Both the position numbers and the translations under genes were made by a program. 64,000 nucleotides of DNA, taken from positions 6,777 through 70,776 of the forward strand of contig JAEIOF010000001.1 in assembly GCA_016342445.1 (NCBI GenBank). Direction: 5' to 3'. The notes beneath the pieces are model-generated. The model searched no databases and was not told the DNA's origin. It saw nothing but the letters and a program-made list of their open reading frames with translations. Within the stretch, counting starts at the first letter, position 1. The number at the start of each line of letters is the position of its first letter. This document shows positions 1,001-44,421 of the stretch, piece after piece. Origin of the DNA: Verrucomicrobiota bacterium. Lineage in GTDB: Bacteria > Verrucomicrobiota > Kiritimatiellia > Kiritimatiellales > Tichowtungiaceae.

Positions 1001-3895
1001 ATGAGCAGTTTTGAATTAGTTCGCGAACAGGACATCCCGGAAGTCAACGGCACGGTGAAAACCTACCGCCACAAACCGACCGGTGCCGAGTATATTTCCG
1101 TCGAAAACGGCGACACCAACAAGGTGTTCGGTATCACCTTCCGCACCCCACCGTCCGACTCGACTGGCGTGGCCCACATCCTCGAACACTCCGTCCTGTG
1201 CGGCTCGCGCAAATACCCGCTCAAAGACCCCTTCGTCCAGCTTCTGAAAGGATCCCTGCAGACCTTTCTCAACGCAATGACCTACCCCGACAAAACGGTC
1301 TACCCCGTCGCCAGCGAGAACGAGCAGGACTTCTACAACCTTGTCGACGTCTACCTCGACGCCGTTTTCTTCCCGCGCATCACCCCCGCCTTCTTCCGTC
1401 AGGAAGGCTGGCACTACGAGCTCGAAAACATCGACGCCCCGCTCACCTGCAAAGGCGTCGTCTATAACGAAATGAAAGGCGTCTACTCATCCCCCGACAG
1501 CCTCCTGCTCGAACGCTCCCAGCAGGCGCTCTTCCCCGACATCACCTACGGCCTCGACTCCGGCGGCAACCCCGCCGAAATCCCGAACCTCACCTACGAC
1601 GCCTTCCGAACCTTCCACGAAACCTATTATCACCCATCCAACGCCCGCATCTTCTTCTACGGCGACGACGACCCCGCCCACCGCCTCAAAATCCTCGAGG
1701 GATATCTCGACGGCTTCCAATGTTTGGAAAATCCTCCGGATTCCTCCATCCCGCTTCAGACCCCTTTCGAAAAACCGATCGAAATCGAAGAGCCCTACGC
1801 CGTCAGCGAAGAAGACGGGAACGCCTTCATCACCGTCAACTGGGCTCTCCCCGACGGCATCCTCCACTTCGCCCTCATCATCCTAGACCAGATCCTCACC
1901 GGCACCTCCGGGTCGCCATTGCGCAAAGCCCTCATCGAATCCGACCTCGGCGAAGACCTCGCCGGCTTCGGCCTCGAAACCAACCTGCGCCAGCCCGCCT
2001 GGTCCATCGGCATGAAAGGCGTCGACGTTCCAAACCTTGGAAAAGTGGAAGGGATTATTTTCCAAACCTTGGAAAAACTGGTCAAAGACGGCATCGACCG
2101 AAACGACATCGAAGCCGCCCTCAACAGCTTCGAATTCGACCTGCGCGAAAACAACAGCGGATCCTGTCCGCAGGGCCTTTCCATCATGCTCAACATGATG
2201 GAAACATGGCTCTATGGGTGGAATCCTCTCGGCCTCGTCGCCTACGAACACCCGCTCGCCGAGCTCAAAAGCAAAATTTCCGAAAACCCCCGCTACTTCG
2301 AAGAGCTCATCCAAACCGCCCTGCTCGACAACACGCACCGCGCCACCATCAAGCTCGTCCCCGACGCCGACAAAGCCGCGCGCGACGAAGCGGAAGAACA
2401 AGCCCGCCTGCAGGCCGTCCGCGACCGGATGATCCCGGATGAGCTTCAGCAAACCGTCAACACCGCCGCGCGTCTGCTCGACATGCAGCAGACGCCCGAC
2501 TCGCCCGAAGCCGTCAAAACCCTGCCCCTGCTCAAACGCAGCGACCTCGACCCCAAAAGCCGAATCATCCCGCGCGAAACCGAAACCTTCGACAACGCCA
2601 CCGTCCTGTTCCACGACCTCTTCACCAGCGGCATCGTCTACCTCGACATTGGCTTCGACCTCCACACGCTCGACGCCGACGACCTCCCGTGGGTCTCCCT
2701 GCTCGGAAGCATGCTGCTCGAAATGGGCACGCAAAAAGAGGACTTCGCCTCGCTCGCCCTGCGCATCGCCCGTAAAACCGGCGGCCTCTACGCCACCCCC
2801 TTCCACGCGGCGCTCGAAAACAGCCCCGAAAGTGTCTGCCGCCTCTTCCTGCGCGGCAAATGCATGAACCACCAGCTGACCGACCTCTTCGACATCCTCG
2901 ACGACATCCTCTTCGCCCCCGCCTTCAACAACCGCAAACGCTTCCGGGAAGTCCTGCTCGAACAAAAAGCCGAAATGGAAAGCGGACTCATCCCCAGCGG
3001 ACACTCCGCCGTCCTCACGCGCATCAAAGCGCACGGACACGAAGCCGCCCGCGCCGCTGAAGCCATCAGCGGCATCGACGCGCTCTTCTTCCACCGCGAC
3101 ATGCAGAAGAAAATGAAAGAGGACTGGCCCGGCACCGTGGCGCGGATCGAAACCATCCTGCAAAAACTGCTCCGCGGCGGACTGATCGTCAACATCACCG
3201 CCGAAGGGAAAGACCGCGCGCCGATTTTCCAAACCCTGGAAAAATTCCTCGCAAAAGTTCCAAGCATTGGAAAATCCGGAGAAAAAAGTTCCAAAGGTTG
3301 GAAGTTTTCGGAAACACCGTCGAAATCTGAAGCGCTACTGATTCCCTCGCGCGTCAACTATGTCGGCCGCGGCATCAACCTGTTCGACAACGGCTATAAA
3401 ATGGACGGCTCGGCGCTGGTCATCACCAAATACCTGCGCACCGCGTGGCTCTGGGAAAAAATCCGAGTACAGGGCGGTGCCTATGGCGCGGTCTGCTCCT
3501 TCGATGCGCACTGCGGGTCGTTCGCCTTCGCCTCCTACCGCGACCCCAACCTCGCCGTCACCCTCGACGTCTACGGACAGACCGCCGACTTCCTGAAAAA
3601 TCTCACGCTCGACGAAGACGAACTCTCCCGCGCGCTCATCGGAACCATCGGTTCTATCGACGCCTACCTGCTTCCCGATGCCAAAGGCTACACCGATATG
3701 GTTCGCTACCTGGCCGGCATGACGGATGAAAAACGGCAGATGCGCCGCGATGAAGTGCTCTCGACCACCGCCGAAGATTTCAAGGAGTTCGCCGAATTCC
3801 TCAACATGGGCAACGCCGTCACCTCCGTCCTCGCCTCGCCCGAAGCGATCAAAGAAAGCGGACTGGAATTCCAAAGCACCTTGCGGGTTTTATAA
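1001..3895 (+). CDS. M16C family zinc metallopeptidase (PreP / presequence-protease-like)
   Basis: 964-aa ORF. It has the inverted zincin motif HILEH inside HILEHSVLCGSRKYPLKDPF and a length typical of M16C PreP-type enzymes. It carries six in-frame copies of the TTCCAA-N3-TTGGAA palindrome. Confidence 0.9.
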   Translation: MSSFELVREQDIPEVNGTVKTYRHKPTGAEYISVENGDTNKVFGITFRTPPSDSTGVAHILEHSVLCGSRKYPLKDPFVQLLKGSLQTFLNAMTYPDKTVYPVASENEQDFYNLVDVYLDAVFFPRITPAFFRQEGWHYELENIDAPLTCKGVVYNEMKGVYSSPDSLLLERSQQALFPDITYGLDSGGNPAEIPNLTYDAFRTFHETYYHPSNARIFFYGDDDPAHRLKILEGYLDGFQCLENPPDSSIPLQTPFEKPIEIEEPYAVSEEDGNAFITVNWALPDGILHFALIILDQILTGTSGSPLRKALIESDLGEDLAGFGLETNLRQPAWSIGMKGVDVPNLGKVEGIIFQTLEKLVKDGIDRNDIEAALNSFEFDLRENNSGSCPQGLSIMLNMMETWLYGWNPLGLVAYEHPLAELKSKISENPRYFEELIQTALLDNTHRATIKLVPDADKAARDEAEEQARLQAVRDRMIPDELQQTVNTAARLLDMQQTPDSPEAVKTLPLLKRSDLDPKSRIIPRETETFDNATVLFHDLFTSGIVYLDIGFDLHTLDADDLPWVSLLGSMLLEMGTQKEDFASLALRIARKTGGLYATPFHAALENSPESVCRLFLRGKCMNHQLTDLFDILDDILFAPAFNNRKRFREVLLEQKAEMESGLIPSGHSAVLTRIKAHGHEAARAAEAISGIDALFFHRDMQKKMKEDWPGTVARIETILQKLLRGGLIVNITAEGKDRAPIFQTLEKFLAKVPSIGKSGEKSSKGWKFSETPSKSEALLIPSRVNYVGRGINLFDNGYKMDGSALVITKYLRTAWLWEKIRVQGGAYGAVCSFDAHCGSFAFASYRDPNLAVTLDVYGQTADFLKNLTLDEDELSRALIGTIGSIDAYLLPDAKGYTDMVRYLAGMTDEKRQMRRDEVLSTTAEDFKEFAEFLNMGNAVTSVLASPEAIKESGLEFQSTLRVL
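1715..1729. repeat. TTCCAA-N3-TTGGAA iterated palindrome, 1 copy (in the M16 peptidase, read as FQCLE)
   Basis: TTCCAATGTTTGGAA read directly. Confidence 0.95.
2028..2074. repeat. iterated palindrome, 2 copies 32 bp apart (M16 peptidase: VPNLGK..FQTLEK)
   Basis: TTCCAAACCTTGGAA at 2028-2042 and at 2060-2074. Confidence 0.95.
3227..3303. repeat. iterated palindrome, phased array of 3 copies with a 31-bp period (M16 peptidase: FQTLEK..VPSIGK..SKGWK)
   Basis: TTCCAAACCCTGGAA at 3227, TTCCAAGCATTGGAA at 3258 and TTCCAAAGGTTGGAA at 3289. Confidence 0.95.
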
Positions 3896-4286: not shown

Positions 4287-5017
4287 TTAAAGCCCAACGG
4301 CTTTGCGGAGCTTGTCAACTTCCCACGGATCGAGGTTGCGGTGTTCGCCGGAACGGAGTTTTTCGAGGCGGAGCGGACCGACCGATACACGAACGAGCCG
4401 AACCACTTTACAGTCGAGCACCTCCATCATCCGGCGAATGTGGCGGTTTTTTCCCTCGCCGAGCGTCAGGGTGTAACCGGGCTGATTGACAAGAATGCGG
4501 CGAAGCGGCTCCACCTTAAGTGCTTTCAGCTTTTCGCCGCGCGAGTTGAGCCCGTTGAGCATGCGGTCGATCTCGGACGGAGTCAGTTCGCGGTCGATCC
4601 AGACCTGATATTTTTTTCAACGTGATGGCGGGGATGCATCAATCGGTGAGCGAGCTCGCCGTCGTTGGTGACAAGCAACAACCCTTCACTCATTACGTCA
4701 AGACGGCCGACGGTGTAGAGGCGGCTGGCGCAGGCGGGAAGCAAATCGAGGACGGTTTCACGTCCTTCGGGATCTTCGGAGGTACAGATGACGCCGGTCG
4801 GCTTGTTGAGCATGATCCAGACCTTTTCGTCCAGCACAACCGGCGTCCCCTCGCAGGTGACGCGGCTTTTGCCGGGCTCCACCTTGGTGCCGAGTTCCGT
4901 GATGACCACGCCATCCACGGTCACCAGTCCGTCCGTAATGAGCTTTTCCGAAGCGCGGCGAGAAGCCACCCCGCACTCAGCCAGATATTTTTGTAATCGG
5001 ATCATAACAATGCTCAA
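4287..5017 (-). pseudogene. rluB: RluB/RsuA-family 23S rRNA pseudouridine synthase interrupted by a frameshift in an A7 run
   Basis: ORF 4583..5017 has the S4 domain and the catalytic motif VGRLDVMSEGLLLVTNDG. ORF 4287..4562 is the C-terminal half of the same family. The two frames join if the A7 run (T7 on the plus strand, 4611-4617) were A8: ..HPRHHVEKKYQVWIDRELTPSEIDRMLNGL.. Confidence 0.8.
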
Positions 5018-7416: not shown

Positions 7417-7431
7417 TTCCAATGTTTGGAA
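7417..7431. repeat. iterated palindrome, 1 intergenic copy (uvrB-ettA)
   Basis: TTTCCAATGTTTGGAAAAA. Confidence 0.95.
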
Positions 7432-7435
7432 AAAT

Positions 7436-7516
7436 TTTAACCACTAATCTTCACTGATCCGCACTCATCACAAAGGCCGTTCCATTAGTGGAAATTAGCA
7501 AAGATTAGTGGTTAAA
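7436..7516. promoter_or_regulatory. 16-bp perfect inverted repeat with three ATTAGTGG boxes in the divergent uvrB-ettA promoter region
   Basis: TTTAACCACTAATCTT (7436-7451) pairs with AAGATTAGTGGTTAAA (7501-7516), leaving a 49-nt loop. ATTAGTGG occurs at 7484-7491 and 7504-7511, and inverted at 7441-7448. TTCCA-TTAG-TGGAA lies at 7480-7493. Confidence 0.5.
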
Positions 7517-11043: not shown

Positions 11044-11493
11044 TCAGACGCTGAGGCCTTTGATGAATTTGCGCAGGACCTGCTCGGGGCATTTGGCGAA
11101 TTTGGGATGATCAAATCGGCGGAAGAAGGAGCCCAGCTCAGCGCTGGAGACATCGAACTCGGCTTTCTTGAACACCGCCAGCATTCCGTCGGACTGCAGG
11201 TTCAGCGCAATCCGCAGTTTTTTCAAAATCTCATTGTTCGACAAATACTCGAGCGGAGCCGGCACAACCCCATCGGGGCGCGGCCCGCGCTTTTCCACGA
11301 TCAGTCCATCGAGAAAACTGCAAAGATCCTTATCGGACAGCGCGACGAACCCCGGTTCATCTTCGAGCTTCAGCCAGTTGATCACTTCCTCTTCGGTGGT
11401 TTCCCGTCCGGATTTGGAGGTGATCTGCGCAATGGCCAGATCGTTCTTATTCAGCGCGTAGCGCAATCGGCGCAGGGTGTCGTTATTGGTCAT
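11044..11493 (-). CDS. DUF1456 (YehS-like) family protein
   Basis: Best start is the ATG at 11493 (MTNNDTLRRLRYALNKNDLAIAQI...). The protein has a duplicated ~70-aa module (..ILKKLRIALNLQSDGMLAVF..) typical of YehS/DUF1456. The upstream 42 codons of the tracked ORF run through repeat-rich intergenic DNA. Confidence 0.75.
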   Translation of the reverse strand: MTNNDTLRRLRYALNKNDLAIAQITSKSGRETTEEEVINWLKLEDEPGFVALSDKDLCSFLDGLIVEKRGPRPDGVVPAPLEYLSNNEILKKLRIALNLQSDGMLAVFKKAEFDVSSAELGSFFRRFDHPKFAKCPEQVLRKFIKGLSV

Positions 11494-11575
11494 AGAAAAT
11501 TCCTTCGTTGAGGGATGCACTCTACGGAACCCCGCGAATTTGAAAAGAAGAATGCCTCTCGCAAAGGAGCGAAAT

Positions 11576-11684
11576 TTCCAATGGTTGGAAAAAATTTCAC
11601 CACGAAATACACAAAACACACGAAAGTTTCCAATGCTTGGAAAAAAGTCGAAATATCCAACGTAGTTGGTTCCAACGATTGGAA
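11576..11684. repeat. iterated palindrome, 3 intergenic copies plus one degenerate copy (DUF1456-nuclease divergent region)
   Basis: TTCCAATGGTTGGAA at 11576, TTCCAATGCTTGGAA at 11628 and TTCCAACGATTGGAA at 11670. A degenerate TCCAACGTAGTTGG lies at 11656. Confidence 0.95.
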
Positions 11685-11759
11685 GCAGGCTGAGCCTGCA
11701 CCCTTCTTTTTATCCAAACACTAGCAAATGAGGCGGGTTGCGGTTAAGCTCCCCGGACT

Positions 11760-12752: not shown

Positions 12753-13904
12753 CTACGCCTTGCGCCGTTTGTCTTTGAAGAGCGCGGTCTTTTTCTTCGC
12801 CTTGGGGCTGCGGGCCGTGTGCGCGACGTTGACAAGCACTCCAATCATGACGGAGCAGACGAGCAGGCTCGATCCGCCGTAGCTGATGAAGGGAAGCGCG
12901 AGCCCTTTGGTCGGCATGGAGCCGGTGACGACCGCCAGATTGATGATCGCCTGCAGCGTAATCATCAATGTGACCCCGAGGGCGGTGAAGCGCCCGAAGT
13001 CGTCGTTCGCGCGCGAAGCGATCCGCATTCCGCAGATAAAAATGACGACAAAAAGCAGCAGCACCGAGAAGGTGGCGATCAGGCCGAGCTCTTCGCCGAT
13101 GATGGGGAAGATAAAGTCGGTATGGGCTTCGGGCAGGTAGAACTGTTTCTGAATGCTGTTGCCGAGGCCGGTTCCGTAGGCCCCGCCAGAAGCAAAGGCA
13201 TTCAAAGCGTTAATGAGCTGCCACGCTTCTTCCTGCGCATATTTTTCCGGATCGAGAAAAGCCATGATACGACCCATGCGATTGGCATTGTGCATCAAAA
13301 ACAGACCGAACACCCCGGCCCCGGCCCCGGCGAAGCTGAGCAGATGACTGAGGCGAACTCCGCCAATAAACAAAAGGATGAGACCCACCAGGCCGGTGAG
13401 CATCGTGGTTCCGAAGTCCGGCTCGATGATTAAAAGCCCGGCAAACATCCCCAGCCCGAGCATAGGAACGAGAATGCCGCGCTTAAACGTGTGCATGTAG
13501 CGGCGGCGGCGGGAGATCCACCAGGCCGCGGCCAGAATGATGCCAATTTTTGAAAACTCGGAGGGCTGAATGGTGAGCGGACCGAGGCGAAGCCAGCGCC
13601 AACTTCCGTTGATCTCATGCCCGATCCCGGGAATTCGAACCAGTACCAGAAAAAGCGCGCAGAGCGCCGCGACGGGCAGCGCGGCCTTGCGAAGCAGAGC
13701 GAGATCAATCCGGGCGCAGACGATGGCCGCCATCAGTGAAATAAGGAGCCAGATCAGCTGACGAACCAGAAAGTATTCGGTCGTTCCGTACGAACTTTCC
13801 CCGCGCACCAGACTGGCGCTGAACATCATGATCACACCAACCGTTGCCAGGATGAGAACGGCGGCAATCAGGGTGACGATGGTTCGGCGTTGCATGAAGA
13901 GCAC
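12753..13904 (-). CDS. ftsW: SEDS-family peptidoglycan glycosyltransferase FtsW (FtsW/RodA/SpoVE)
   Basis: 383-aa polytopic membrane ORF with the SEDS signature region ..PEAHTDFIFPIIGEELG.. It is the last gene of the dcw block. Confidence 0.9.
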   Translation of the reverse strand: MLFMQRRTIVTLIAAVLILATVGVIMMFSASLVRGESSYGTTEYFLVRQLIWLLISLMAAIVCARIDLALLRKAALPVAALCALFLVLVRIPGIGHEINGSWRWLRLGPLTIQPSEFSKIGIILAAAWWISRRRRYMHTFKRGILVPMLGLGMFAGLLIIEPDFGTTMLTGLVGLILLFIGGVRLSHLLSFAGAGAGVFGLFLMHNANRMGRIMAFLDPEKYAQEEAWQLINALNAFASGGAYGTGLGNSIQKQFYLPEAHTDFIFPIIGEELGLIATFSVLLLFVVIFICGMRIASRANDDFGRFTALGVTLMITLQAIINLAVVTGSMPTKGLALPFISYGGSSLLVCSVMIGVLVNVAHTARSPKAKKKTALFKDKRRKA

Positions 13905-14003
13905 TCTAATTCAGTCGAGGGTCGGAAGTCAAAATGTCGAAGGTCCAAATCAAAAAAAAGCGCCCCGTTGGAGAGGCGCTTCCTGTAATTCAGCATACAG
14001 ATC

Positions 14004-14952: not shown

Positions 14953-16293
14953 CTACGCGTCCACACACTCGCTCTTCAGGCGGCACACTTCTCGGGCGAA
15001 CAACTCGCCGCGCTCATTAAAACTGCGAAACTGATCAAAGCTGGTGCACGCGGGAGAAAGCAGCACAGTATCACCCGGTTCTGCACTCTCCCACACGGCG
15101 CAGACAGCCTGTTCCAGCGTTTCGCAGGGCAGACACTCAACTGAATCCGCCCAAGCCGCCTGCATCGCCTCGGAAGCTTCCCCGATAAGATATAGACGGG
15201 AAACCTGCTTCACCAGTAAATCTTTTGCAAAACTAAGATCCGTCTCCTTGGCCCGCCCTCCCGCGATCAAATGAACAGGTCCCGACACCATCCGGAGCGC
15301 CGCGCACATCCCCGCCAGATTGGTGGCCTTGGAGTCGTCGATAAATCTGACGCCGTTGATTTCCGCTACGGTCTCCATCCGGTGCGGCAATGGCTGAAAG
15401 GCGCGGGCCGAGGCCTCCACTGCGGACGGCGACAGGCCGCACGCCTCGCAAACCGCCGCAACGGCCGCGCCCGCCGCACCGAGCACCTTGTTGTCAAAAC
15501 AGGTTTCCGTCAGATCGATCTCGCCCACGTGTCCGCCGGCAAAACGGTAATCCGCGCCCTCTTCCGTCCCGAACGTTTTCGTAACGGCGCTGCGTCCTGC
15601 GTCAGGGCCCCAAGATTCAGGAACGTTTCGGCCCATTGTTCCAAGGCCTGGAACTTTTTCACCGGATTTTTCCAACCCCTGGAAAAAGTCAAAGGGCAGG
15701 ATCGCGGTATCCGAGCGCTGCATGTTTTCGAACAGCCGCAACTTAAACGCGCGGTAGGTTTCCATATCGCCGTGACGATCGAGATGGTTGGGAAGCACAT
15801 TGAGAAGCACGCCGATGTCAGGACGGAACTGCTCGATGGTTTCAAGCTGGAACGAGCTGACTTCGATCACAAGCCAGTCTGGGATTTCGGCGAGCATGAC
15901 CGCCGCGGAAACCGGCAAACCGTAGTTGCCGCAGGGAATCGCCCGCTGTCCGGCCTGCGCCAGCGCATCCACAATCCATTTAACGACCGTGCTCTTGCCG
16001 TTGGATCCGGTGACGGCGATGACCGGGCAATGGCGGCGCGACCAACCGAATTCGAGTTCTGAAAGAAGCGGGATTTCGCGGGCAATCAAATCCTGAATCC
16101 ACGGATGATCCAGAGAAAAGCCCGGACTGACGACAGCGATCTCGGGGGTGAAGTGGAGGTCTTCGTAGCGATAGTCGGGGGTGGTCTCTTCGCAAATGCA
16201 CACAGCCGGCGTGCCGTCCGTGCGCAACAGCGCTTCAGCGGCCCGCCCGCTGCGCCCGGCACCCAAAACTAAAGCTTTTTTGTATTGATGCAT
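14953..16293 (-). CDS. murD: UDP-N-acetylmuramoylalanine--D-glutamate ligase
   Basis: 446-aa ORF with the Mur ligase P-loop VIAVTGSNGKSTV, in dcw context. It contains a probable insertion (FFQGLEKSGEKVPGLGTMGRNVPESWG..) encoded by two palindrome copies. Confidence 0.93.
   Translation of the reverse strand: MHQYKKALVLGAGRSGRAAEALLRTDGTPAVCICEETTPDYRYEDLHFTPEIAVVSPGFSLDHPWIQDLIAREIPLLSELEFGWSRRHCPVIAVTGSNGKSTVVKWIVDALAQAGQRAIPCGNYGLPVSAAVMLAEIPDWLVIEVSSFQLETIEQFRPDIGVLLNVLPNHLDRHGDMETYRAFKLRLFENMQRSDTAILPFDFFQGLEKSGEKVPGLGTMGRNVPESWGPDAGRSAVTKTFGTEEGADYRFAGGHVGEIDLTETCFDNKVLGAAGAAVAAVCEACGLSPSAVEASARAFQPLPHRMETVAEINGVRFIDDSKATNLAGMCAALRMVSGPVHLIAGGRAKETDLSFAKDLLVKQVSRLYLIGEASEAMQAAWADSVECLPCETLEQAVCAVWESAEPGDTVLLSPACTSFDQFRSFNERGELFAREVCRLKSECVDA
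15639..15684. repeat. composite unit of two palindrome variants with a 16-nt spacer, inside murD
   Basis: TTCCAAGGCCTGGAA at 15639 and TTCCAACCCCTGGAA at 15670. The whole 46-nt unit resembles 3258-3303 in reverse complement. Confidence 0.9.
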
Positions 16294-17439: not shown

Positions 17440-18720
17440 TTATGATTTGAGTTCTTCAAGAATTGTTTCGAGCTTTTCGCCGCGCGAGGCCTTAAGGAGC
17501 ACCCTATCACCTGCTCTTAAAATTTCACGCAAAAGTTTAACGGCGGTCGATTTTTCGACTCCGACAACCCCTTCACACCCGATTTGCGTACCTGATTCGC
17601 CAATCGTAATGACGCCGTCGAACTTCAGGGAATCGACGAACCGCCCCAGCTCGCGGTGCTCGACGTCGCTGTCCGCGCCCAGCTCGCGCATCCCGCCGAG
17701 CACAACAAATTTCCGCCCCGTGCAGGGAAGCTCCGCGAATGCGGAAAGAGCCGCGCGCATGGAGAGCGGGTTGGCGTTGTAGGCATCGTTAATGAAAACC
17801 ACCCCGCCCTGTTCGCTTTCTTCCCAGCGCATGGGGGCTGGACGAAAGGCGTCGAGCCCCGCCTGAATCTCTTCAGGGGCAAGACCCAGCTCCAGCCCGA
17901 GCGTCGCGGCAAAGCGCGCATTTTGAACCATGTGCGCACCGGGTTGCGAAATACGAAAGGGCTCCCGGGTTAACACGACAACACGCCCCTGAAAACCGGC
18001 TTGAAGCCGATCGAACCACTCCGAATCGGCATCGAGGATCGCTTTCGAAGCGTGGTTGAGAATCGCCGCTTTCTCGCCTGCAATCCTTTCCAATGTCTGG
18101 AAATTTTTATCACGCCCCGGCTCAGTCGGCTGGAAAAACTCGGTATGGGCTTTCCCAATGGTTGTAATCACGGCCCAGTCCGGTTTCAGCAGACCCGCCA
18201 ACCGACCGATTTCGCCGGGATGATTCATTCCGAGTTCAAAAACGAAGTAGTCGGCGGAGCGGTCGGCGGCCATCATACTGAGCGGCAAGCCGATATCGTT
18301 GTTCCAGTTGCCGATGGTTTTGGCAACGCCCCCCTTCTGCGCCAGCACCGAGGCGACCAGCTCTTTGACGGTGGTCTTTCCGGCGCTGCCGGTGATTCCG
18401 ATCACGGTGCCCGTCCACTCGCGACGTACGCCCTCGGCCATCTGCCATAAAGCCTCAAGCGTGTCGGGGACAATCAGCTGCGGAGTTCCAAACATTGGAA
18501 AAAATTCCTCAACGATAAGACCGGCCGCGCCCTTTGCAACCGCTTGCGCGACAAAGTCGTGCCCGTCGTGGATTTCACCTTTAATGGCAATATACACATC
18601 GCCCGGTTTCAACGTCCGGGTGTCGTGAGAAATTCCAAGGATTGGAACCAACTGCGTTGGATTTTCTGAATTCTTCCAAGCATTGGAAGTCCAACTTGCG
18701 AGTTCAGCGAAGGAAACCAT
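17440..18720 (-). CDS. murF: UDP-N-acetylmuramoyl-tripeptide--D-alanyl-D-alanine ligase
   Basis: 426-aa ORF with the P-loop GITGSAGKTTVKE, in dcw context. It carries four in-frame palindrome copies. Confidence 0.93.
   Translation of the reverse strand: MVSFAELASWTSNAWKNSENPTQLVPILGISHDTRTLKPGDVYIAIKGEIHDGHDFVAQAVAKGAAGLIVEEFFPMFGTPQLIVPDTLEALWQMAEGVRREWTGTVIGITGSAGKTTVKELVASVLAQKGGVAKTIGNWNNDIGLPLSMMAADRSADYFVFELGMNHPGEIGRLAGLLKPDWAVITTIGKAHTEFFQPTEPGRDKNFQTLERIAGEKAAILNHASKAILDADSEWFDRLQAGFQGRVVVLTREPFRISQPGAHMVQNARFAATLGLELGLAPEEIQAGLDAFRPAPMRWEESEQGGVVFINDAYNANPLSMRAALSAFAELPCTGRKFVVLGGMRELGADSDVEHRELGRFVDSLKFDGVITIGESGTQIGCEGVVGVEKSTAVKLLREILRAGDRVLLKASRGEKLETILEELKS
18088..18102. repeat. 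iterated palindrome variant, 1 copy in murF (FQTLE)
   Basis: TTCCAATGTCTGGAA. Confidence 0.9.
18486..18500. repeat. iterated palindrome, 1 copy in murF (FPMFG)
   Basis: TTCCAAACATTGGAA. Confidence 0.95.
18633..18688. repeat. iterated palindrome, 2 copies in the murF 5' end (SNAWK..VPILG)
   Basis: TTCCAAGGATTGGAA at 18633 and TTCCAAGCATTGGAA at 18674. Confidence 0.95.
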
Positions 18721-22318: not shown

Positions 22319-23244
22319 ACTGTCATCTCCTTTTCCACCACCCGCAATTTCGCCGAACGCGCGCGCGGGTTGTCCGCCAATTCCTGTTTCGTGGCAGTCA
22401 CCGGTTTTCCGGTAATTCGTCGTACTGCCGGTTCGTCATAAACTAATTTTTCACCACCCTGCTGAAGCGACTCGCGCTTCACGGTGTGGCGTTTAAAGCA
22501 TTCCTTCACCATCCGGTCTTCCAGACTATGGAAGGTGATCACAGTCATCCGTCCGCCCGGGCGAAGCATCGAGAGGCCCGCCTCCAGGCCGGTCTCCAGA
22601 CTTTCCAGCTCGGCATTGACTGCCATGCGAAGCGCCTGAAATGTCTGGGTGGCCGGATGAGTCGGCCCGCGGCGCCCGCCGACGGCTTTTTCAACAATCG
22701 CGGCCAACTCGAGTGTCCGCTCGATCCGACCCGTTTTACGCGCCTCCACAATGGCGCGGGCAATCCGGCGCGATTTGCGCTCTTCGCCCAATCGATAAAT
22801 CACATTGGCGAGCGTCTCTTCATCCTCTTCGTTCACCCAGTCGGCGACCGAACGGCCCTGCGTTTGATCCATGCGCATATCGAGCGGGCCGTCCTTACCG
22901 AAGCTAAATCCGCGTTCCGCGACATCAAGCTGCGGCGAGCTGACGCCGAGGTCGAGGAGCACCCCGTCCACTTCCGTCACACCGATCGTTTTGCAAAGCT
23001 CTTTCATATCCGCAAAATTTCCATGAATCCGCTGCACCTGATTTCCAAACCCCTTCAACCTCTCCGCCGTCTGCATGATGGCCTCCGCGTCGCGATCCAG
23101 CCCGATCAACCGTCCGTCCGGCGAAAGCCGTTTTAAAATTTCCAGTGCATGTCCGCCGCGCCCGAGCGTCCCGTCGATGTACGTTCCTGCCGGATTGGTA
23201 ATCAGCAGATCCAACGTTTCGTTCAGCAATACCGGAACATGCAT
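22315..23244 (-). CDS. rsmH: 16S rRNA (cytosine1402-N4)-methyltransferase
   Basis: 309-aa ORF starting MHVPVLLNETLDLL..DGTLGRGGH.., the typical RsmH/MraW signature, in dcw context. Confidence 0.95.
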   Translation of the reverse strand: MHVPVLLNETLDLLITNPAGTYIDGTLGRGGHALEILKRLSPDGRLIGLDRDAEAIMQTAERLKGFGNQVQRIHGNFADMKELCKTIGVTEVDGVLLDLGVSSPQLDVAERGFSFGKDGPLDMRMDQTQGRSVADWVNEEDEETLANVIYRLGEERKSRRIARAIVEARKTGRIERTLELAAIVEKAVGGRRGPTHPATQTFQALRMAVNAELESLETGLEAGLSMLRPGGRMTVITFHSLEDRMVKECFKRHTVKRESLQQGGEKLVYDEPAVRRITGKPVTATKQELADNPRARSAKLRVVEKEMTV

Positions 23245-31837: not shown

Positions 31838-32899
31838 TCAGACCAATTCAGCAAACACTGAATCGCTCACAAAAAGAGCCTCTTCGGAAAGCCGGACGCG
31901 CCGTCCCTCGATCACCAGCAACCCCTGTTTTTCCAATGCTTGGAAACATTCGCCGAGATGTTTCCAGCCACTGGAAGAAACCTTCACGCCCGCCAGAAGC
32001 CGCAACCCCATCACCCGCGTCTCGCGCTCCTTCGCCTCCGGACCGAGCGTTTCCTCGAACTCTCGGCGCGGGCCGTTGGCGCAATAATCGTCCAGATCGG
32101 ACACATTCGCCCAGCGCACCCCGTTCCAGTGCGAATGGGCCGCCGGGCCGCAGCCGATATATTCGCCACCCGTCCAGTAGAGCAAATTGTGGCGGCACTC
32201 GAAGCCCGGCTTCGCAAAATTTGAAATCTCGTAATGCACAAACCCCGCCGCGTTCAGCCGCGCACGGATCCGGTCGTACATCTCGCGCTCGAGATCTTCA
32301 TCCAGCCGATCGAGCCGCGCCTCCATCGGGGTCCCCGCTTCGTACATCAAGTTATAAATCGCAATATGCTCCGGCCCGAGGGCAAGCGCACGATCGAGAT
32401 CGGACTCCAACATCTGCATTGTCTGACCCGGCACGCCAAACATCAGATCGACACTCATGTTTTCAAAACCCACCCTGCGCGCCAGCCGAAAGGCCGCTTC
32501 CGCCTGCTCCGCCGAATGAATCCGCCCCAGCGTTTCCAGACATTGGAAATCAAACGACTGCACCCCGACCGAAAGCCGGTTCACACCGCTCCGTTTCAAC
32601 AGCGCCAGCTTGGCTTCATCAACGGTTCCCGGATTAACCTCCACCGAAAACTCCATCGGACGGAATTTTCCAAGGCTTGGAAGAAACTTTTCCAATGCCT
32701 GGAAACCCGGGGCGGTCGGCGTGCCGCCGCCGATAAAAACGGTCTCCGGCGCGAAGTCCGGCGGCAACCCGCTCAGCTCTTTTTCCAATGTTTGGAAAAA
32801 CCGCTCCTGTTTTTTCCAATCATTGGAAACAACGGAGTAGAAAGCGCAGTAGGAACACTTGCGCTCACAAAACGGAATATGAATGTACAGACCTGACAT
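31838..32899 (-). CDS. hemW: radical SAM heme chaperone HemW (coproporphyrinogen III oxidase-like)
   Basis: Radical SAM motif LYIHIPFCERKCSYCAF. The ATG at 32899 (MSGLYIHIPFC) is preferred because the tracked start at 32968 would overlap the divergent tlyA. The gene carries seven palindrome copies. Confidence 0.85.
   Translation of the reverse strand: MSGLYIHIPFCERKCSYCAFYSVVSNDWKKQERFFQTLEKELSGLPPDFAPETVFIGGGTPTAPGFQALEKFLPSLGKFRPMEFSVEVNPGTVDEAKLALLKRSGVNRLSVGVQSFDFQCLETLGRIHSAEQAEAAFRLARRVGFENMSVDLMFGVPGQTMQMLESDLDRALALGPEHIAIYNLMYEAGTPMEARLDRLDEDLEREMYDRIRARLNAAGFVHYEISNFAKPGFECRHNLLYWTGGEYIGCGPAAHSHWNGVRWANVSDLDDYCANGPRREFEETLGPEAKERETRVMGLRLLAGVKVSSSGWKHLGECFQALEKQGLLVIEGRRVRLSEEALFVSDSVFAELV
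31931..31976. repeat. iterated palindrome, 2 copies in the hemW 3' end
   Basis: TTCCAATGCTTGGAA at 31931 and TTCCAGCCACTGGAA at 31962. Confidence 0.9.
32534..32548. repeat. iterated palindrome variant, 1 copy in hemW
   Basis: TTCCAGACATTGGAA. Confidence 0.9.
32668..32704. repeat. iterated palindrome, 2 copies 22 bp apart in hemW
   Basis: TTCCAAGGCTTGGAA at 32668 and TTCCAATGCCTGGAA at 32690. Confidence 0.95.
32783..32828. repeat. iterated palindrome, 2 copies with a 31-bp period in hemW
   Basis: TTCCAATGTTTGGAA at 32783 and TTCCAATCATTGGAA at 32814. Confidence 0.95.
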
Positions 32900-32944
32900 G
32901 ATTGCCGATTGTAGATTGTCGATTTGCGATTTACACTCACTCAC

Positions 32945-33679
32945 GTGAAAAAAATACGACTCGATCAATTACTTGTTGAAAAAGGACTCGCCGAAAGCCG
33001 CGAAAAGGCTAAGCGCCTGATTCTGGCAGGTCAAGTTCTCGTCGACGGCCACCCCTCCCCGAAACCAGGCCACCCGCTGGCACCCGATCACAAAATCGTC
33101 CTAGAGGAAGCCGCGCGCTTTGTCAGCCGCGGCGGAGACAAGCTCGAAGGGGCGATGGAGGCCTTCCCGATTGAGCTGACCGATAAGGTCTGCCTCGATA
33201 TCGGCTCGTCGACCGGCGGCTTCACCGACTGCATGCTCCAGCACGGCGCAACCAAGGTCTACGCTGTCGACGTCGGCAAAGGACAGCTCCACTGGAAGTT
33301 GCGCGAAGATCCGCGCGTTGTCGTGATGGAGGGAACCAATGCCCGCTATCTGACGCCCGCCGATCTGCCGGAGCTGGCCGATTTTGCCTCGATCGACACC
33401 TCATTCATTTCTCTCACCAATATTCTGCCGGCTGTCGAAAGTCTGCTGAAACCGGGAGGCGAAATCGTCTCGCTGATCAAGCCTCAGTTTGAAGCGGGTA
33501 AAGAAGAAGTGGACAAGGGGCGCGGCGTGATCACCGATCCGGCGATTCACGAAGAGGTGGTTTCCAAGGTTCGGAAATTCGGAACCGAAAAACTGGGGCT
33601 CGAATGGATCGGCCTGTCCACCTCGCCACTCAAAGGCCCCAAAGGCAATGTGGAGTTTCTGGCCTACTGGAAAAAGTGA
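32945..33679 (+). CDS. tlyA: TlyA family rRNA (cytidine-2'-O)-methyltransferase
   Basis: An S4 domain plus an FtsJ-like methyltransferase. The GTG start at 32945 gives VKKIRLDQLLVEKGLAESREKAKRLI.., which matches the usual TlyA N-terminus. The tracked ORF starts at TTG 32924. Confidence 0.88.
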   Translation: MKKIRLDQLLVEKGLAESREKAKRLILAGQVLVDGHPSPKPGHPLAPDHKIVLEEAARFVSRGGDKLEGAMEAFPIELTDKVCLDIGSSTGGFTDCMLQHGATKVYAVDVGKGQLHWKLREDPRVVVMEGTNARYLTPADLPELADFASIDTSFISLTNILPAVESLLKPGGEIVSLIKPQFEAGKEEVDKGRGVITDPAIHEEVVSKVRKFGTEKLGLEWIGLSTSPLKGPKGNVEFLAYWKK

Positions 33680-41265: not shown

Positions 41266-42774
41266 TTATTCAAATGAACGAGCGGACACCGCGCCACTCG
41301 GCTGAACTTTACGAGCCGTCACGAAGATCATGAGGTTACGCTTCACAGCCCGCTCCCCTTCGGAACGGAACAGGCGCCCGATGAGCGGAACGCTCCCCAG
41401 CAGCGGAACCCGGTCTTCAAACGCTTCGATTTTCTCGCCGATTAGTCCGCCCAGCCCAACGGTGGCACCGTTGGCAACCGAAATTTCGGTTTTAATTTCG
41501 CGACGTTTAAAGACAGGCAATCTGGCAACCACCGGATCGTGCTCGAACTGCAAACCGATACGCTGCTGATAATAGGTGTAGGAGCTGTTGGCAGGTGCCA
41601 GCTGATACTGCTCCCATCCGAGAAGCTCGGTGATGCGCGGGTTGATTTTCATTTTGATCTCATCGTTGTTGATCGTGGGAGTCACTTCCATCTCAACCCC
41701 AAGGATTTTCTCCTCGAAGTCTTCGTATTTCACATGGACCATCGTTCCGCCCGTTCCGCCGGACTCATAGACTTCCGGATAGGAGTGGCGTTCGCCCACA
41801 ATAATGGTTGCGGATTCGCCGCTGAGGGTCGTGATACTCGGAGCGGAGAGAACGTCCACACCGGCGGTCTGATCGAGAGCATTGATCAGCAGATCAATCG
41901 CCGTTCCGTCCATCTCGCCGGACAAGGCGAGCGTGCCCGCATCCGCGCTGAACATGTCTTCGATCCGGTTAACACTCCACTCGCCGGTGGTTGAGCGGAC
42001 TTCACCCAGCCCCAGAGTTTCGGTCTGAGTAAACGGCACGCTGCGCAGGGCGTCGGAGAACAGGTTTTGATCGCCATCCAGGCTCCAGTTGCTGGGGAGA
42101 TCAACCCCGTCCGGAGCGGACCACCGGAAGCCCAGTTCTTCGAGTGCACCTTCGGAAAACTCAACGAAGCGGGCTTCGATTTCAACCTGCTCTGCGGAGG
42201 CCTGGGCTTCGGCTTCGCCGAACGCCGCCAATACTTCCTCGAGCTTGGAGAGATTCGCGGCCGTGTTTTTCACGAACAGTTTCTGCAGATCCGGCATATA
42301 GAGAGCGGAGGATCCTTTAGGAAAGTCCACCACGGAAAACTGATCCGCAATATCGGTTACCTGATCGACGCCTTCCAGAGACATGCTTTCCACGAAGCGT
42401 TCGGTCACGGGATAATACCGCAAAATCAGTCCCCAATCCAAATCGACCTTTTTCAGGGCCGCCTCTTCGGCATTCTTATGAGTCAGGACCTTTGCCTTCT
42501 TCGCCGCGGACCGTGCGGGGACAACCGCAACGGCCTCCAGCTCGACGACCGGGGCTTCTGCAACCACGACTGGTGCTTCTGCAACCACGACCGGGGCTTC
42601 TTCTACAACCACAGCAGGCGCCTCTGCCGCCACGCCCGAGGCTTCAGTCGCCGGGGCGTTCACGACAGAGTTGAGCTCGTTCAGAACTGATTGAACGGAT
42701 CCATTGTCCTGTTGTGCAAACACGGTCCCCATCATCAGCACACTGAGTATTAAAAAATTTGTAATCTGTTTCAT
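41266..42774 (-). CDS. secretin-family outer-membrane channel protein (paralog A)
   Basis: 502-aa ORF with a signal peptide, an (EAPVVVA)x3 linker, one N1-like domain (FPKGSSALYMPDLQKLFVKNTAANLSKLEEVL) and a secretin domain. The C-terminal signature is GLGGLIGEK...RVPLLGSVPLIGRLFRSEGERAVKRNLMIFVTARKV. Confidence 0.8.
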   Translation of the reverse strand: MKQITNFLILSVLMMGTVFAQQDNGSVQSVLNELNSVVNAPATEASGVAAEAPAVVVEEAPVVVAEAPVVVAEAPVVELEAVAVVPARSAAKKAKVLTHKNAEEAALKKVDLDWGLILRYYPVTERFVESMSLEGVDQVTDIADQFSVVDFPKGSSALYMPDLQKLFVKNTAANLSKLEEVLAAFGEAEAQASAEQVEIEARFVEFSEGALEELGFRWSAPDGVDLPSNWSLDGDQNLFSDALRSVPFTQTETLGLGEVRSTTGEWSVNRIEDMFSADAGTLALSGEMDGTAIDLLINALDQTAGVDVLSAPSITTLSGESATIIVGERHSYPEVYESGGTGGTMVHVKYEDFEEKILGVEMEVTPTINNDEIKMKINPRITELLGWEQYQLAPANSSYTYYQQRIGLQFEHDPVVARLPVFKRREIKTEISVANGATVGLGGLIGEKIEAFEDRVPLLGSVPLIGRLFRSEGERAVKRNLMIFVTARKVQPSGAVSARSFE

Positions 42775-42798: not shown

Positions 42799-44421
42799 TC
42801 AGTTATTGAGCGCCGCAGCCGACCGGCTCTGCCCATTGTTATTCAACTGAGTGGCAGATACAAAGATCATGAGGTTGCGCTTGATGCTCTTCTCGCCTTC
42901 CGAACGGAACAGACGGCCCAGCAGAGGGATGCTGCCGAGGACGGGGACCTTGTCCTTGTAGGTTTCGAGACGGTCATAAATGAGTCCGCCCAGACCGACG
43001 GTGCTGCCGTCAGCAACCGCCACTTTGGTTTTGATTTCGCGCACCCGGAAATAGGGAAGTTGTCCGTTGATCGACGGGAGCGGGATGCCCAGCTCGTCAT
43101 GATGGATCGGAGCGCTCTGACTGTAATAACCGTATTGTGGAGATCGATAGTTGTCTGCGGGAACAGTATCGCTGCTGTCGTTGGGGTCATTATTATCCCC
43201 AAGGAACGGGGACAATGATTCCTGAGCCAGATTCCAAAGACCATTAACGGATGATGTGTTGAAGATCGGAAACCGTCCCTGCGGGCGAATGGTGTTCGCG
43301 CCATATCCGTTATAAACCATCATGGAGGCGTTCGGGGAGAGCTGATAGGTGTCGTAGCCGATCAGATCGATAATCTTCGGGTTGAGATCCAGACGGATCA
43401 GGTTGTTCTCCTGGATTTTCGGCGTCACGCTGAACTGAACGCCCATCAGCTCGGAATTCCAGTCGCTGTGCTCCACATGGATATTCACTTCTGACGATTT
43501 GGTCTGGAAGCCTTTCGGAACCATGCGGTCTTCACCCACCCAGATTTCAGCTTTTTTCCCGTCCGTGGTGGTCAGGCTCGGGGCGGAAAGCACATCGGAA
43601 TCACCGGCCTGCTCGAGAGCATCGATCGCAAGCGTCAAGGGCATCCAGCCGGTTTTGGTCAACACCATGGATCCAACTGCCGGGGCCCCGCCAAAGGCGG
43701 CGGCGGCCGTACGGATCCCGGCCCCAAATACGTCCTGATTCGGATTGACCATCCAGTCGGTATCAAACAGACGCGCTCCATCGCCGATATCCTGAATATC
43801 CCAGGTGAAGCCGAGCTGATTGAGTGTGCTCTGACTGACTTCAATAAATTTGGCGTTGATCTCAACCTGTTCGAAGTCCTGCTCCCCTTTTGCATAGGTG
43901 GCCAGGATGCTTTCAACCTGCGCGAGGTTGGACGGTGTGTTGCGCACCAGCAACTGCCCGTAAGCTGATTGGAAATCAGCCGAGGCCCCTTTCGGAAAGT
44001 CGACTCCGCTGAAGAAGGGCGTCACGTCCAGGAAGGCACCGCGCTGAACCCCGTCAATCTCCATCGCCTTGCTGATCGCGGGACTAACTCTGTAGGAGCG
44101 GAACAGAATATCGCCTGAATTGTCCCAACCATCGGTAACGGTTTGCAGCATCTCGTCACGGGTCGCCTCTTGCAGATCCCCGGCAAATGCCGACTGGATG
44201 CCGTACGCTGTGTTGCGAAGTTCGTCACTGGTGTAGCCCATCACATCCGCGACGACTTTAACGGTATCAGCCGGAAGATCTTTCACGGCATCTACGACGG
44301 ATTCGAGCACCACGTCACTTTCATCCGGCAATCCGGTCGGCGAGGTGATCACCACTTCAGCCGATGCGAATCGTGCAAACGCCGATGCGACTGTTATGAG
44401 CCAAACAATACTTTTCTTCAT
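42799..44421 (-). CDS. secretin-family outer-membrane channel protein (paralog B)
   Basis: 540-aa ORF with a signal peptide, an N1-like domain (FPKGASADFQSAYGQLLVRNTPSNLAQVESIL) and a secretin domain. The C-terminal signature is GLGGLIYDR...KVPVLGSIPLLGRLFRSEGEKSIKRNLMIFVSATQL. Confidence 0.8.
   Translation of the reverse strand: MKKSIVWLITVASAFARFASAEVVITSPTGLPDESDVVLESVVDAVKDLPADTVKVVADVMGYTSDELRNTAYGIQSAFAGDLQEATRDEMLQTVTDGWDNSGDILFRSYRVSPAISKAMEIDGVQRGAFLDVTPFFSGVDFPKGASADFQSAYGQLLVRNTPSNLAQVESILATYAKGEQDFEQVEINAKFIEVSQSTLNQLGFTWDIQDIGDGARLFDTDWMVNPNQDVFGAGIRTAAAAFGGAPAVGSMVLTKTGWMPLTLAIDALEQAGDSDVLSAPSLTTTDGKKAEIWVGEDRMVPKGFQTKSSEVNIHVEHSDWNSELMGVQFSVTPKIQENNLIRLDLNPKIIDLIGYDTYQLSPNASMMVYNGYGANTIRPQGRFPIFNTSSVNGLWNLAQESLSPFLGDNNDPNDSSDTVPADNYRSPQYGYYSQSAPIHHDELGIPLPSINGQLPYFRVREIKTKVAVADGSTVGLGGLIYDRLETYKDKVPVLGSIPLLGRLFRSEGEKSIKRNLMIFVSATQLNNNGQSRSAAALNN

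Follow-up and report, generated by a model that had tools for sequence, protein, structure and literature searches.

Do the genes for a cell-wall ligase and a peptidase share a copied DNA element, or two members of a repeat family? The question arises in a 64,000-nucleotide stretch of a Verrucomicrobiota bacterium of the order Kiritimatiellales (contig JAEIOF010000001.1, positions 6,777 to 70,776; hereafter the window), where the MurD ligase gene (murD, 14953–16293, − strand; Mur_ligase_M/C in Pfam) and a PreP-type M16C peptidase gene (PreP, 1001–3895, + strand; Pfam) contain similar 46-nt segments, each a palindrome, a 16-nt spacer, and a second palindrome. Both segments occur exactly as first quoted, TTCCAGGGGTTGGAAAAATCCGGTGAAAAAGTTCCAGGCCTTGGAA at 15684–15639 (−) in murD and TTCCAAGCATTGGAAAATCCGGAGAAAAAAGTTCCAAAGGTTGGAA at 3258–3303 (+) in PreP. 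A hand alignment with one gap in each gives the claimed 37 identical columns out of 47, and both spacers read K-S-G-E-K, which includes the S-G-E-K noted as common to the two proteins. The original prediction explained this resemblance by copy-and-paste of a longer element. To see a copy event between the two genes is a misreading, and the interpretation is mostly wrong: the composite is not an element in its own right but two family palindromes at their commonest spacing, and the repeated entity is a 15-nt palindrome with A/T flanks. The family is apparently an undescribed, order-wide iterated palindrome whose copies are spaced in helical phase.

A Highly Iterated Palindrome

The family, written as TTCCAnnnnnTGGAA, has 40 copies in the window (expectation 0.1) and a modal spacing of 31 nt. 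These 40 matches to the 15-nt palindrome TTCCANNNNNTGGAA in 64 kb compare with 0.10 expected, and 0 of 100 shuffles reach 40; TTCCAA-N3-TTGGAA, 15 bp long, recurs about once per 1.5 kb. The consensus, tTTTCCAA-w-S-w-TTGGAAAa, is a perfect dyad with no tag at either end. Its center base is C or G in 94–100% of copies, and conservation stops about 4 bases beyond the arms. The N3 geometry is exclusive, with 29 strict copies of TTCCAA-N3-TTGGAA against 0–1 for any other spacing or orientation. The palindrome is therefore a dyad-symmetric site with fixed half-site geometry, as known for cooperative operator or nucleoid-protein sites.

Thirty-five of the 40 copies (88%) lie within Pfam-confirmed genes, in phases 17:9:9. 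Since 92% of the window is coding, the palindrome has no intergenic preference. The density is uneven, with 35 copies in the first 40 kb, the housekeeping part (0.9 per kb), and 5 in the last 24 kb (0.2 per kb). The commonest center-to-center distance, 31 nt, is found at 26036/26067/26098, 31931/31962, and 32783/32814, in the murD pair, and in a PreP trio.

The murD and PreP Sites

The relatives compared were L119 (a syntenic contig, 87–88% identical), L129 and L130 (together the ~78% relative), L122 (Tichowtungia aerotolerans), and L121. In murD, the palindrome at 15670–15684 (TTCCAGGGGTTGGAA on the − strand) is read in phase 0 as F-Q-G-L-E (MurD residues 204–208) and lies in a short helix (201–210) of the AlphaFold2 model. 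The 16-nt spacer at 15654–15669 (−; AAATCCGGTGAAAAAG), an A-tract, a G+C core, and an A-tract, encodes K-S-G-E-K-(V), and the second palindrome at 15639–15653 (TTCCAGGCCTTGGAA on the − strand) is read in phase 1 as (V)-P-G-L-G (residues 214–218). The spacer is wholly different in L119 (AAAGTAGAGGGAGTTTT) and in the ~78% relative, and the L119 counterpart of the second palindrome is degenerate (TTCCATGTTTGGAA). The unit belongs to a lineage-variable extra segment of MurD (15580–15684, −; residues 204–238, FQGLEKSGEKVPGLGTMGRNVPESWGPDAGRSAVT). This segment is non-canonical, as had been suspected: it does not align to E. coli MurD (no alignment between residues 192 and 277), and it is absent from insert-free Kiritimatiellales MurD. 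Flanked by the conserved 'TAILPFDF' and 'KTFGTEEGAD', it is an insertion hotspot with 0 to ~90 additional residues among orthologues, many of which carry FQxLEK-x4-(V/F/L)PxxGK with SGEK, CGEK, SNEN, KDEK, VEGV, and other spacers. The AlphaFold model has a mean predicted local distance difference test (pLDDT) score of 82, and residues 215–234 form a loop with pLDDT below 50. A supposed third, decayed murD palindrome at 15609–15623 was rejected as too weak, with ~8 of 12 arm bases and only if a 4-nt loop is allowed.

PreP contains three copies, 31 nt apart. Palindrome 1 (3227–3241, TTCCAAACCCTGGAA; phase 0, F-Q-T-L-E, residues 743–747), absent from the original prediction, occupies a site that is also occupied in the ~78% relative, L121, and Tichowtungia. 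Palindrome 2 (3258–3272, TTCCAAGCATTGGAA; phase 1, (V)-P-S-I-G) has orthologous copies that keep the arms and have GCA, AGG, CCA, or CCC as centers. The spacer (3273–3288, +; AATCCGGAGAAAAAAG; K-S-G-E-K-(S)) is identical in the PreP orthologue of L121, and palindrome 3 (3289–3303, TTCCAAAGGTTGGAA) is read in phase 2 as S-K-G-W-K. Distant orthologues have LQSLE..LPxxG..SxKDW at this place. In most relatives, copies 2 and 3 are 22 nt apart; a 9-nt clade-specific insertion in the spacer changes this distance to 31 nt and creates K(S/T)(G/D)EK. PreP orthologues keep a length of 960–965 residues down to 57% identity, and the T. aerotolerans MurD and PreP are 65–73% identical to the window proteins. 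Ortholog alignment, proposed as a check for an indel, thus gives a divided answer: MurD has a true insertion hotspot, and PreP has its ancestral length except for the 9-nt clade insertion.

Two side observations concern the same proteins. A second repeat family, a GC-rich hairpin of the form ..CACCCCTCC-n3/4-GGAGGGGA.. that reads PTPAxGHPSxGG.., often with ..RVHSRSFAV, directly follows the (V/F)PxxGK palindrome as an insertion in orthologues of MurD and PreP but does not occur in the window; it was seen in L001, L059, and L119 and at the insertion hotspots of MurD P0005, P0010, and P0036 and PreP P0124, P0144, and P0156. A metagenome contig, L120 (3626–3742), is identical to the window through the murD palindromes and changes ~30 nt further on to unrelated A+T-rich sequence; the switch is near the contig end and looks like an assembly chimera or a break close to the repeat.

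Resemblance of the Two Spacers

One could suppose that the unit or its 16-nt spacer passed between murD and PreP by gene conversion or by templated insertion anchored on the palindromes. Such an event would fit a spacer core with 13 of 14 bases identical and the same K-S-G-E-K reading, the young 9-nt insertion inside the PreP spacer, and the cassettes common to other palindrome-flanked loci in the window. However, the similarity is within what the family itself leads one to expect. Against a background of 197–229 family spacers from other genomes, the murD/PreP similarity score of 12 is reached by 1.6% of different-locus pairs, or 1.3% without likely orthologues. Since the window holds 36 spacer pairs, this rate corresponds to ~0.5 such pairs expected, and the likeness is not significant. 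The common core TCCGGNGA is shifted by 1 nt against both flanking palindromes and is thus not an in-register copy, and 8 of the 10 mismatched columns fall on the freely varying palindrome centers. Moreover, 'SGEK' is present in MurD orthologues at 66–73% identity and missing from the closest ones, so that it is either old or recurrent. TCCGG is a common neighbor of the palindrome, found in 33 of 1058 family flanks, ~4 times the uniform-base estimate.

The search for further copies points the same way. AATCCGGNGAAAAA is found in the window only at the murD and PreP sites, plus one match with 1 mismatch, and the window holds no further copy of the unit or its spacer. A metagenome collection of 241 million records yielded two matches to the spacer plus adjoining arms, the same murD locus and a PreP orthologue, and no third gene. 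The body expected of a miniature inverted-repeat transposable element (MITE) is missing as well, because all 197 sampled 16-nt spacers differ and the window repeats decay to background outside the palindrome and its A/T flank. Conservation in these 197 spacers is confined to the ends, one with AAA and one with AAAAG(T) or TTT, around a build of A-tract, G+C-rich core of ~7 nt, and A-tract. The likeness of the two spacers would then stem from this common build, from coding for a hydrophilic linker, and from chance. Transfer between the two genes is accordingly judged very unlikely. The original prediction had named a lack of further copies, together with an ancestral segment in both protein families, as contrary to its view; this is largely what is found for PreP and partly for MurD. 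What survives of the longer copied element is a repeat family behind the likeness and, at other loci, some cassettes in common.

Helical Phasing of Neighboring Copies

Neighboring copies stand at integer multiples of ~10.4 bp. Their distances cluster at 22, 31, 42, 52, 63, 74, 84, 95... nt, and a Rayleigh test on the window alone gives R = 0.85 at 10.3–10.5 nt. When all loci are taken without the selected 31-nt class, the best period is 10.4 nt (R = 0.80, n = 107); without all distances of 17–32 nt, R is 0.75 (n = 33). For loci of relatives selected by gene and not by motif, R is 0.92 (n = 15). No 3-nt (codon) period is present in the inter-palindrome distances of all loci. In T. aerotolerans, the distances are 31, 23, 62, 22, 177, 93, 62, and 31 nt.

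The phasing is also maintained when the spacing itself changes. At the murE/murF junction, one palindrome pair at the MurF N-terminus is 41, 43, and 31 nt apart in three relatives (window, murF at 17440–18720; L119, 7594–7760; L130, 7625–7790), and the frame is restored by compensating changes. Adjacent sites thus lie on the same helical face, with a period of 10.4 nt, R values of 0.75–0.92, and 31, 41, and 43 nt at a single orthologous site. An α-helix periodicity in the encoded proteins was rejected as an explanation for the ~10.4-nt spacing: the frame changes from one copy to the next, the copies encode Pro and Gly, and intergenic arrays have the same period.

Such arrays occur in some metagenome-assembled genomes (MAGs), intergenic or 5'-terminal, where 6–7 perfect palindromes (TTCCAATSATTGGAA) follow one another every 31 nt, close upstream of gene starts (L017, 339–508, preceding a PurM-like gene; L071, 565–754; L077, 609–778). 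Because they are open in several frames, they are absorbed into long calls of open reading frames (ORFs), and they probably give rise to spurious N-terminal extensions when MAGs are annotated.

A Signal at the DNA Level

The palindrome is a DNA-level signal, neither a peptide nor an RNA motif. Regardless of the frame, it imposes FQxLE, (V/F)PxxG(K), or SxxW(K) on many proteins. Of 17 FQxLE peptides, 16 are spelled with the motif, against 16% expected from codon usage, where CAA makes up 21% of Gln and TTG 14% of Leu codons. A peptide-level repeat was rejected in view of the three reading phases, the rare codons, and the varying central residues. A transcription terminator was likewise discarded, since the hairpin has a T-run before it and an A-run after it on both strands. 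A mini-CRISPR (short palindromic repeats, clustered and regularly interspaced) was also dismissed: the repeats are 15 nt and the spacers 16 nt (23–47 and 21–72 nt, respectively, in CRISPR), the copies are genic, and the window contains no cas genes.

An RNA hairpin with a 6–9-bp stem and a triloop, acting in mRNA stability, processing, or translation, has to be considered, as any hairpin-encoding sequence is a DNA palindrome and single copies do fold as single strands, albeit weakly (−4.7 to −6.2 kcal/mol). Nevertheless, what is conserved is the sequence of the arms, and compensatory change is hardly seen; the center base shows no bias by coding strand (G18:C15); the spacing tracks the B-DNA repeat; arrays stand upstream of genes; and the whole window gave no Rfam match at gathering scores. 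An RNA-level role is therefore barely credible.

Conservation and Origin of the Copies

Between the window and L119, identity is 83% in the arms, 38% in the centers, 56% in the ±12-nt flanks, and 73% at third codon positions. Orthologous sites keep their arms in the 88% relative, the ~78% relative, and Tichowtungia, and the centers vary. Alignments show that many copies probably arose in place, with protein length unchanged. In the HemW-like gene (31838–32968), the radical SAM domain carries five palindromes, and its alignment with E. coli HemN (1OLT) shows no indel at any of them (VSNDWKKQERFFQTLEKEL against VTRQQHKADQYLDALEQEI). In PreP, the copies at residues 343 and 354 are in a gap-free conserved helix, and there is no indel relative to Pontiella, either here or in the 743–763 linker. 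In UvrB, FQTLE immediately precedes the GVTGSGKT Walker A motif.

Other places are tolerant, and copies build up and turn over there: MurD, a GlmU-like protein, and the MurF N-terminus, where small indels alter the spacing. The GlmU-like protein is a hotspot like MurD, with modules of ~10 residues gained and lost, and palindrome presence/absence indels separate relatives that are 88% identical. Compared with copy-free orthologues, an insertion is thus seen in MurD and the GlmU-like protein, but not in the HemW-like protein, at PreP 343/354, or at PreP 743–763.

Cassettes Shared Between Loci

Short cassettes between or beside palindromes appear, from sequence comparison, to be exchanged among loci. 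The intergenic composite at 11628–11703 consists of a palindrome, a 27-nt spacer with the hairpin CCAACGTAGTTGG, a second palindrome, and the GC hairpin GCAGGCTGAGCCTGCACCC. In an all-against-all comparison of flanks, its part 11628–11684 resembles the reverse complement of 18633–18688, at the murE/murF junction, over ~57 nt. The small hairpin CCAACGYAGTTGG within this 57-nt composite also adjoins a palindrome in another MAG, and the GC hairpin (11685–11703) forms the spacer at the L119 murF site and stands beside palindromes in L059. In relatives, cassette sites are at L119 7626–7683, L059 3772–3786 and 6810–6824, and L060 about 1121. Flank similarity of at least 10/12 matches was found for 4 pairs within and 2 pairs between genomes, a small and non-significant excess. 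Since short cassettes are common to palindrome-flanked loci, a recombination or mobile-element component stays viable.

The fullest form of such a component would be a mobile mosaic repeat, in which the palindromes are recognition hairpins or sites at which a dedicated transposase or recombinase acts; this enzyme would insert modules of palindrome and spacer, also within genes, and shuffle the cassettes between them. The known elements of this kind are repetitive extragenic palindromic (REP) sequences and bacterial interspersed mosaic elements (BIMEs), with REP-associated tyrosine transposases (RAYTs) (Nunvar et al. 2010, PMC2817692; Di Nocera et al. 2013, PMC3733652). They resemble the present family as short, high-copy palindromes in regular arrays and in mosaics with other short modules, and REPs serve as protein-binding sites, a role that is only predicted here. 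However, REPs are extragenic, imperfect, tagged (GTAG/CGTC), and alternating in orientation with typed linkers, whereas the copies described here are perfect dyads, 88% genic, with unique spacers and no RAYT among the ORFs of the 64-kb window.

Two further groups invite comparison. Rickettsia palindromic elements (RPEs), reportedly described by Ogata and colleagues in 2000, are said to be mobile insertions of 100–150 bp with a conserved body; they likewise lie in-frame within housekeeping protein genes and are tolerated in surface loops, but the present unit is 15–23 bp, and no insertion is seen at most copies. The neisserial dRS3 repeat and neisserial intergenic mosaic elements (NIMEs), reportedly described by Parkhill and colleagues in 2000, are said to include hundreds of copies of a short repeat whose ends are inverted (ATTCCC-N8-GGGAAT). 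They also bracket short exchangeable cassettes, but they are intergenic targets of phage and IS integration and are not written through coding sequence. By this comparison, REP/BIME and dRS3/NIME appear closest for arrays and mosaics, and RPEs for in-frame presence in housekeeping genes; RPEs are mentioned in PMC1779305 and PMC10969869.

A mobile repeat of REP/BIME, NIME, or RPE type would fit the hotspots in MurD and the GlmU-like protein with their transient ~10-residue modules, the presence/absence indels between 88%-identical relatives, the regular arrays, the 57-nt composite common to 11628–11684 and 18633–18688, the GC hairpin cassette beside palindromes at several loci and genomes, and the nesting of other repeat families at the same hotspots. 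Yet, the copies are mostly genic and show no intergenic preference; many are in protein regions of conserved length without insertion; there is no body beyond the palindrome and no target-site duplication, and 197 of 197 spacers are unique. A 31-nt module would, in addition, shift the reading frame, and the perfect dyad gives no strand cue, unlike REP hairpins. No transposase or RAYT was found in the window, where 40 of 48 ORFs were scanned with Pfam and the other 8, dcw-cluster genes, were covered by the annotation of syntenic L119. The family departs from REPs in its genic position and lack of tags, with no RAYT in the window, and from MITEs and RPEs in having no conserved body and, at the HemW-like and PreP sites, no insertion, and a mobile origin is regarded as quite improbable.

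Distribution in Kiritimatiellales

Copy density is 0.66 per kb in the window, 0.61 in L119, 0.84 in the ~78% relative, and 0.46 in T. aerotolerans (65 kb sampled); none was found in the 23 kb sampled of Pontiella desulfatans. Extrapolation from the sampled density suggests ~1,800 copies in the T. aerotolerans genome. When 185,579 species genomes were scanned for pairs of strict palindromes at a distance of 31 nt, at least 118 stretches matched, and among the matches listed, all named ones are Kiritimatiellia or loosely labelled MAGs of the Planctomycetes–Verrucomicrobia–Chlamydiae (PVC) group. Five viral contigs match the pair pattern and are uninformative. The searchable literature contains no description of the motif variants or of FSNHWK/FPIIGK peptides and links no such repeat to Kiritimatiellales.

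This abundance recalls the DNA uptake sequences (USS/DUS) of Pasteurellaceae and Neisseriaceae (Findlay and Redfield 2009, PMC2817400), which occur at ~1 copy per kb, largely in coding DNA at poorly conserved residues, make the encoded peptides more frequent, are scarce in genes without homologues in relatives, and accumulate in place. On the other hand, uptake sequences are asymmetric and form no phased arrays, whereas rare rather than preferred codons spell the motif here; their function is proven, and the palindrome is known from sequence alone. As an alternative, the palindrome could be a self motif of this or of the HIP1 type (see below), with motif-bearing DNA preferentially taken up or recombined and molecular drive acting at tolerant codons of long-resident genes. 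A density of ~0.5–0.9 per kb is like uptake-sequence counts for genomes of roughly 2,000 genes (PMC2817400), the copies seem to originate in situ where residues are weakly constrained and persist at orthologous sites, and the flanks are A/T tracts. The motif is sparser in the accessory, polysaccharide-utilization part (0.2 vs. 0.9 per kb, in one window), and a preprint links HIP1 to transformation efficiency (bioRxiv 10.1101/2024.09.10.611283). Nevertheless, uptake sequences are single, and this explanation does not lead one to expect a strict 6-3-6 dyad or unique-spacer arrays at whole helical turns; furthermore, no competence is known for Kiritimatiellales. It is considered unlikely.

A Putative Dimeric DNA-Binding Protein

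HIP1 is a highly iterated palindrome of cyanobacteria, GCGATCGC, over-represented 15–300-fold or more, inside and between ORFs and clade-wide; the conservation of its sites from genome to genome has led to selection being inferred, it has no known peptide or RNA role, and a role in nucleoid structure has been proposed (Xu, Lawrence and Durand 2018, PMC5861425; Elhai 2015, PMC4390886). The present family is likewise a short, over-represented palindrome (40 vs. 0.10 expected), within and between ORFs, clade-wide, with sites conserved between genomes. It is not HIP1 by sequence, and it belongs to another phylum; 12 specified bases split 6-3-6 around a free center replace a contiguous 8-mer, and an A+T-rich motif stands in a 56% G+C genome and piles up in protein insertion hotspots. 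HIP1 has a periodicity of 10–90 kb rather than local arrays at whole helical turns (22/31/42 nt), and the HIP1 type has cognate orphan methyltransferases. HIP1 and uptake sequences seem the closest analogues in how abundant they are, in lying within coding DNA, in arising in place, and in having conserved sites.

We favor, with about even confidence, the reading that this HIP1- or USS-like iterated motif is the cooperative binding site of a putative dimeric protein and is maintained by selection or drive. Each palindrome would be bound by a dimeric protein with sequence specificity for DNA, neighboring sites would be occupied cooperatively on one face of the helix, and the role may be in chromosome structuring or related to recombination. 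The sites would be created and kept by selection or by a drive linked to the binding protein, and the many identical sites of 15–19 nt would allow short intervening cassettes to be swapped by template switching or recombination.

Several points weigh against the binding-site reading. The source material is 64 kb of this genome plus fragments of others, and nothing in the window points to a candidate binding protein. Part of the spacing data comes from loci chosen for holding a 31-nt pair, the spacing sites are partly not independent because some are orthologous, and the period was fitted after the data had been seen, though it was upheld in the loci of relatives. In-place origin was read from alignments and not from ancestral reconstruction. 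The insertion hotspots, the turnover of ~10-residue modules, and the sharing of cassettes also fit a system driven by a recombinase or transposase, and a drive of the uptake type would likewise lead copies to arise in place, to be conserved in position, and to be depleted in accessory genes.

A bolder form of the binding-site reading, which is put forward tentatively and with more doubt than belief, is that Kiritimatiellales possess a kind of chromatin code. An abundant dimeric protein would polymerize or bridge on helically phased sites written through the genes, ~2,000 per genome. The cost would be FQxLE, PxxGK, and SxxWK peptides throughout the proteome and loop insertions in essential enzymes such as MurD, and the sites would double as anchors for cassette exchange.

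Other Features of the Window

Apart from the murD and PreP copies, 35 family matches lie between 1715 and 61066, the one at 22519 included. Those in arrays are at 2028/2060, 9318/9358, 11576/11628/11670, 18633/18674, 26036/26067/26098/26140, 31931/31962, 32668/32690/32783/32814, and 52017/52049; single copies are at 1715, 7281, 7417, 18088, 18486, 32534, 38075, 38149, 39561, 39645, 53059, 53534, and 61052. The match at 22519–22533 (TTCCAGACTATGGAA) was rejected as a family member, being a chance match to the conserved RsmH motif F-H-S-L-E-D-R. The DUF1456 ORF at 11044–11619 is 191 residues as called, against 149 for its L129 orthologue; its start is probably further downstream, and the palindrome at 11576 is therefore most likely intergenic. 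The right palindrome flanks at 7417–7446 and 11576–11605 both carry AAAATTTnACCAC.A (10/12 bases) directly upstream of the − strand starts of uvrB and DUF1456 and may be a common 5' signal.

The palindrome-poor part (40000–64000) encodes an AraC regulator, adjacent paralogous secretins (41266–42774 and 42799–44421), a 1216-residue surface protein, an SSF transporter, a PL8 lyase, chondroitinase B, a fucosidase, and two sulfatases. The first secretin gene contains a 21-nt unit (ACGACCGGGGCTTCTGCAACC) in three tandem copies (42545–42612). An RluB/RsuA-like pseudouridine synthase (4287–5017, −) is broken into two ORFs, one holding S4 and the catalytic domain's first half (4583–5017) and one with the C-terminal half (4287–4562); the L129 orthologue (13266–13988) is whole, with 240 residues, and the split may mark a pseudogene or come from a frameshift or an error of assembly. 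A type I-C CRISPR-Cas operon of T. aerotolerans (L122, 15888–22889; Cas3, Cas5d, Csd1, Cas7, Cas4, Cas1, Cas2) lies a few kb from PreP and has no counterpart in the window.

Implications

Hyper-abundant short palindromes of the HIP1 kind have been unexplained for decades, and the Kiritimatiellales palindrome is an independent, longer, and more specific case in another phylum. Its spacing at whole helical turns points to a protein that reads double-stranded DNA. Since the motif is present in cultured T. aerotolerans, which has a complete genome, at ~0.46 per kb, the putative binding factor could be isolated there. Where "hypothetical proteins" and N-terminal extensions in Kiritimatiellia MAGs contain peptides such as FQSLEK, FPIIGK, and FSNHWK, these are the translated palindrome repeat. 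Collectively, the sites in MurD, in MurF, in UvrB beside the Walker A motif, and in PreP indicate that a DNA-level signal can reshape essential proteins.

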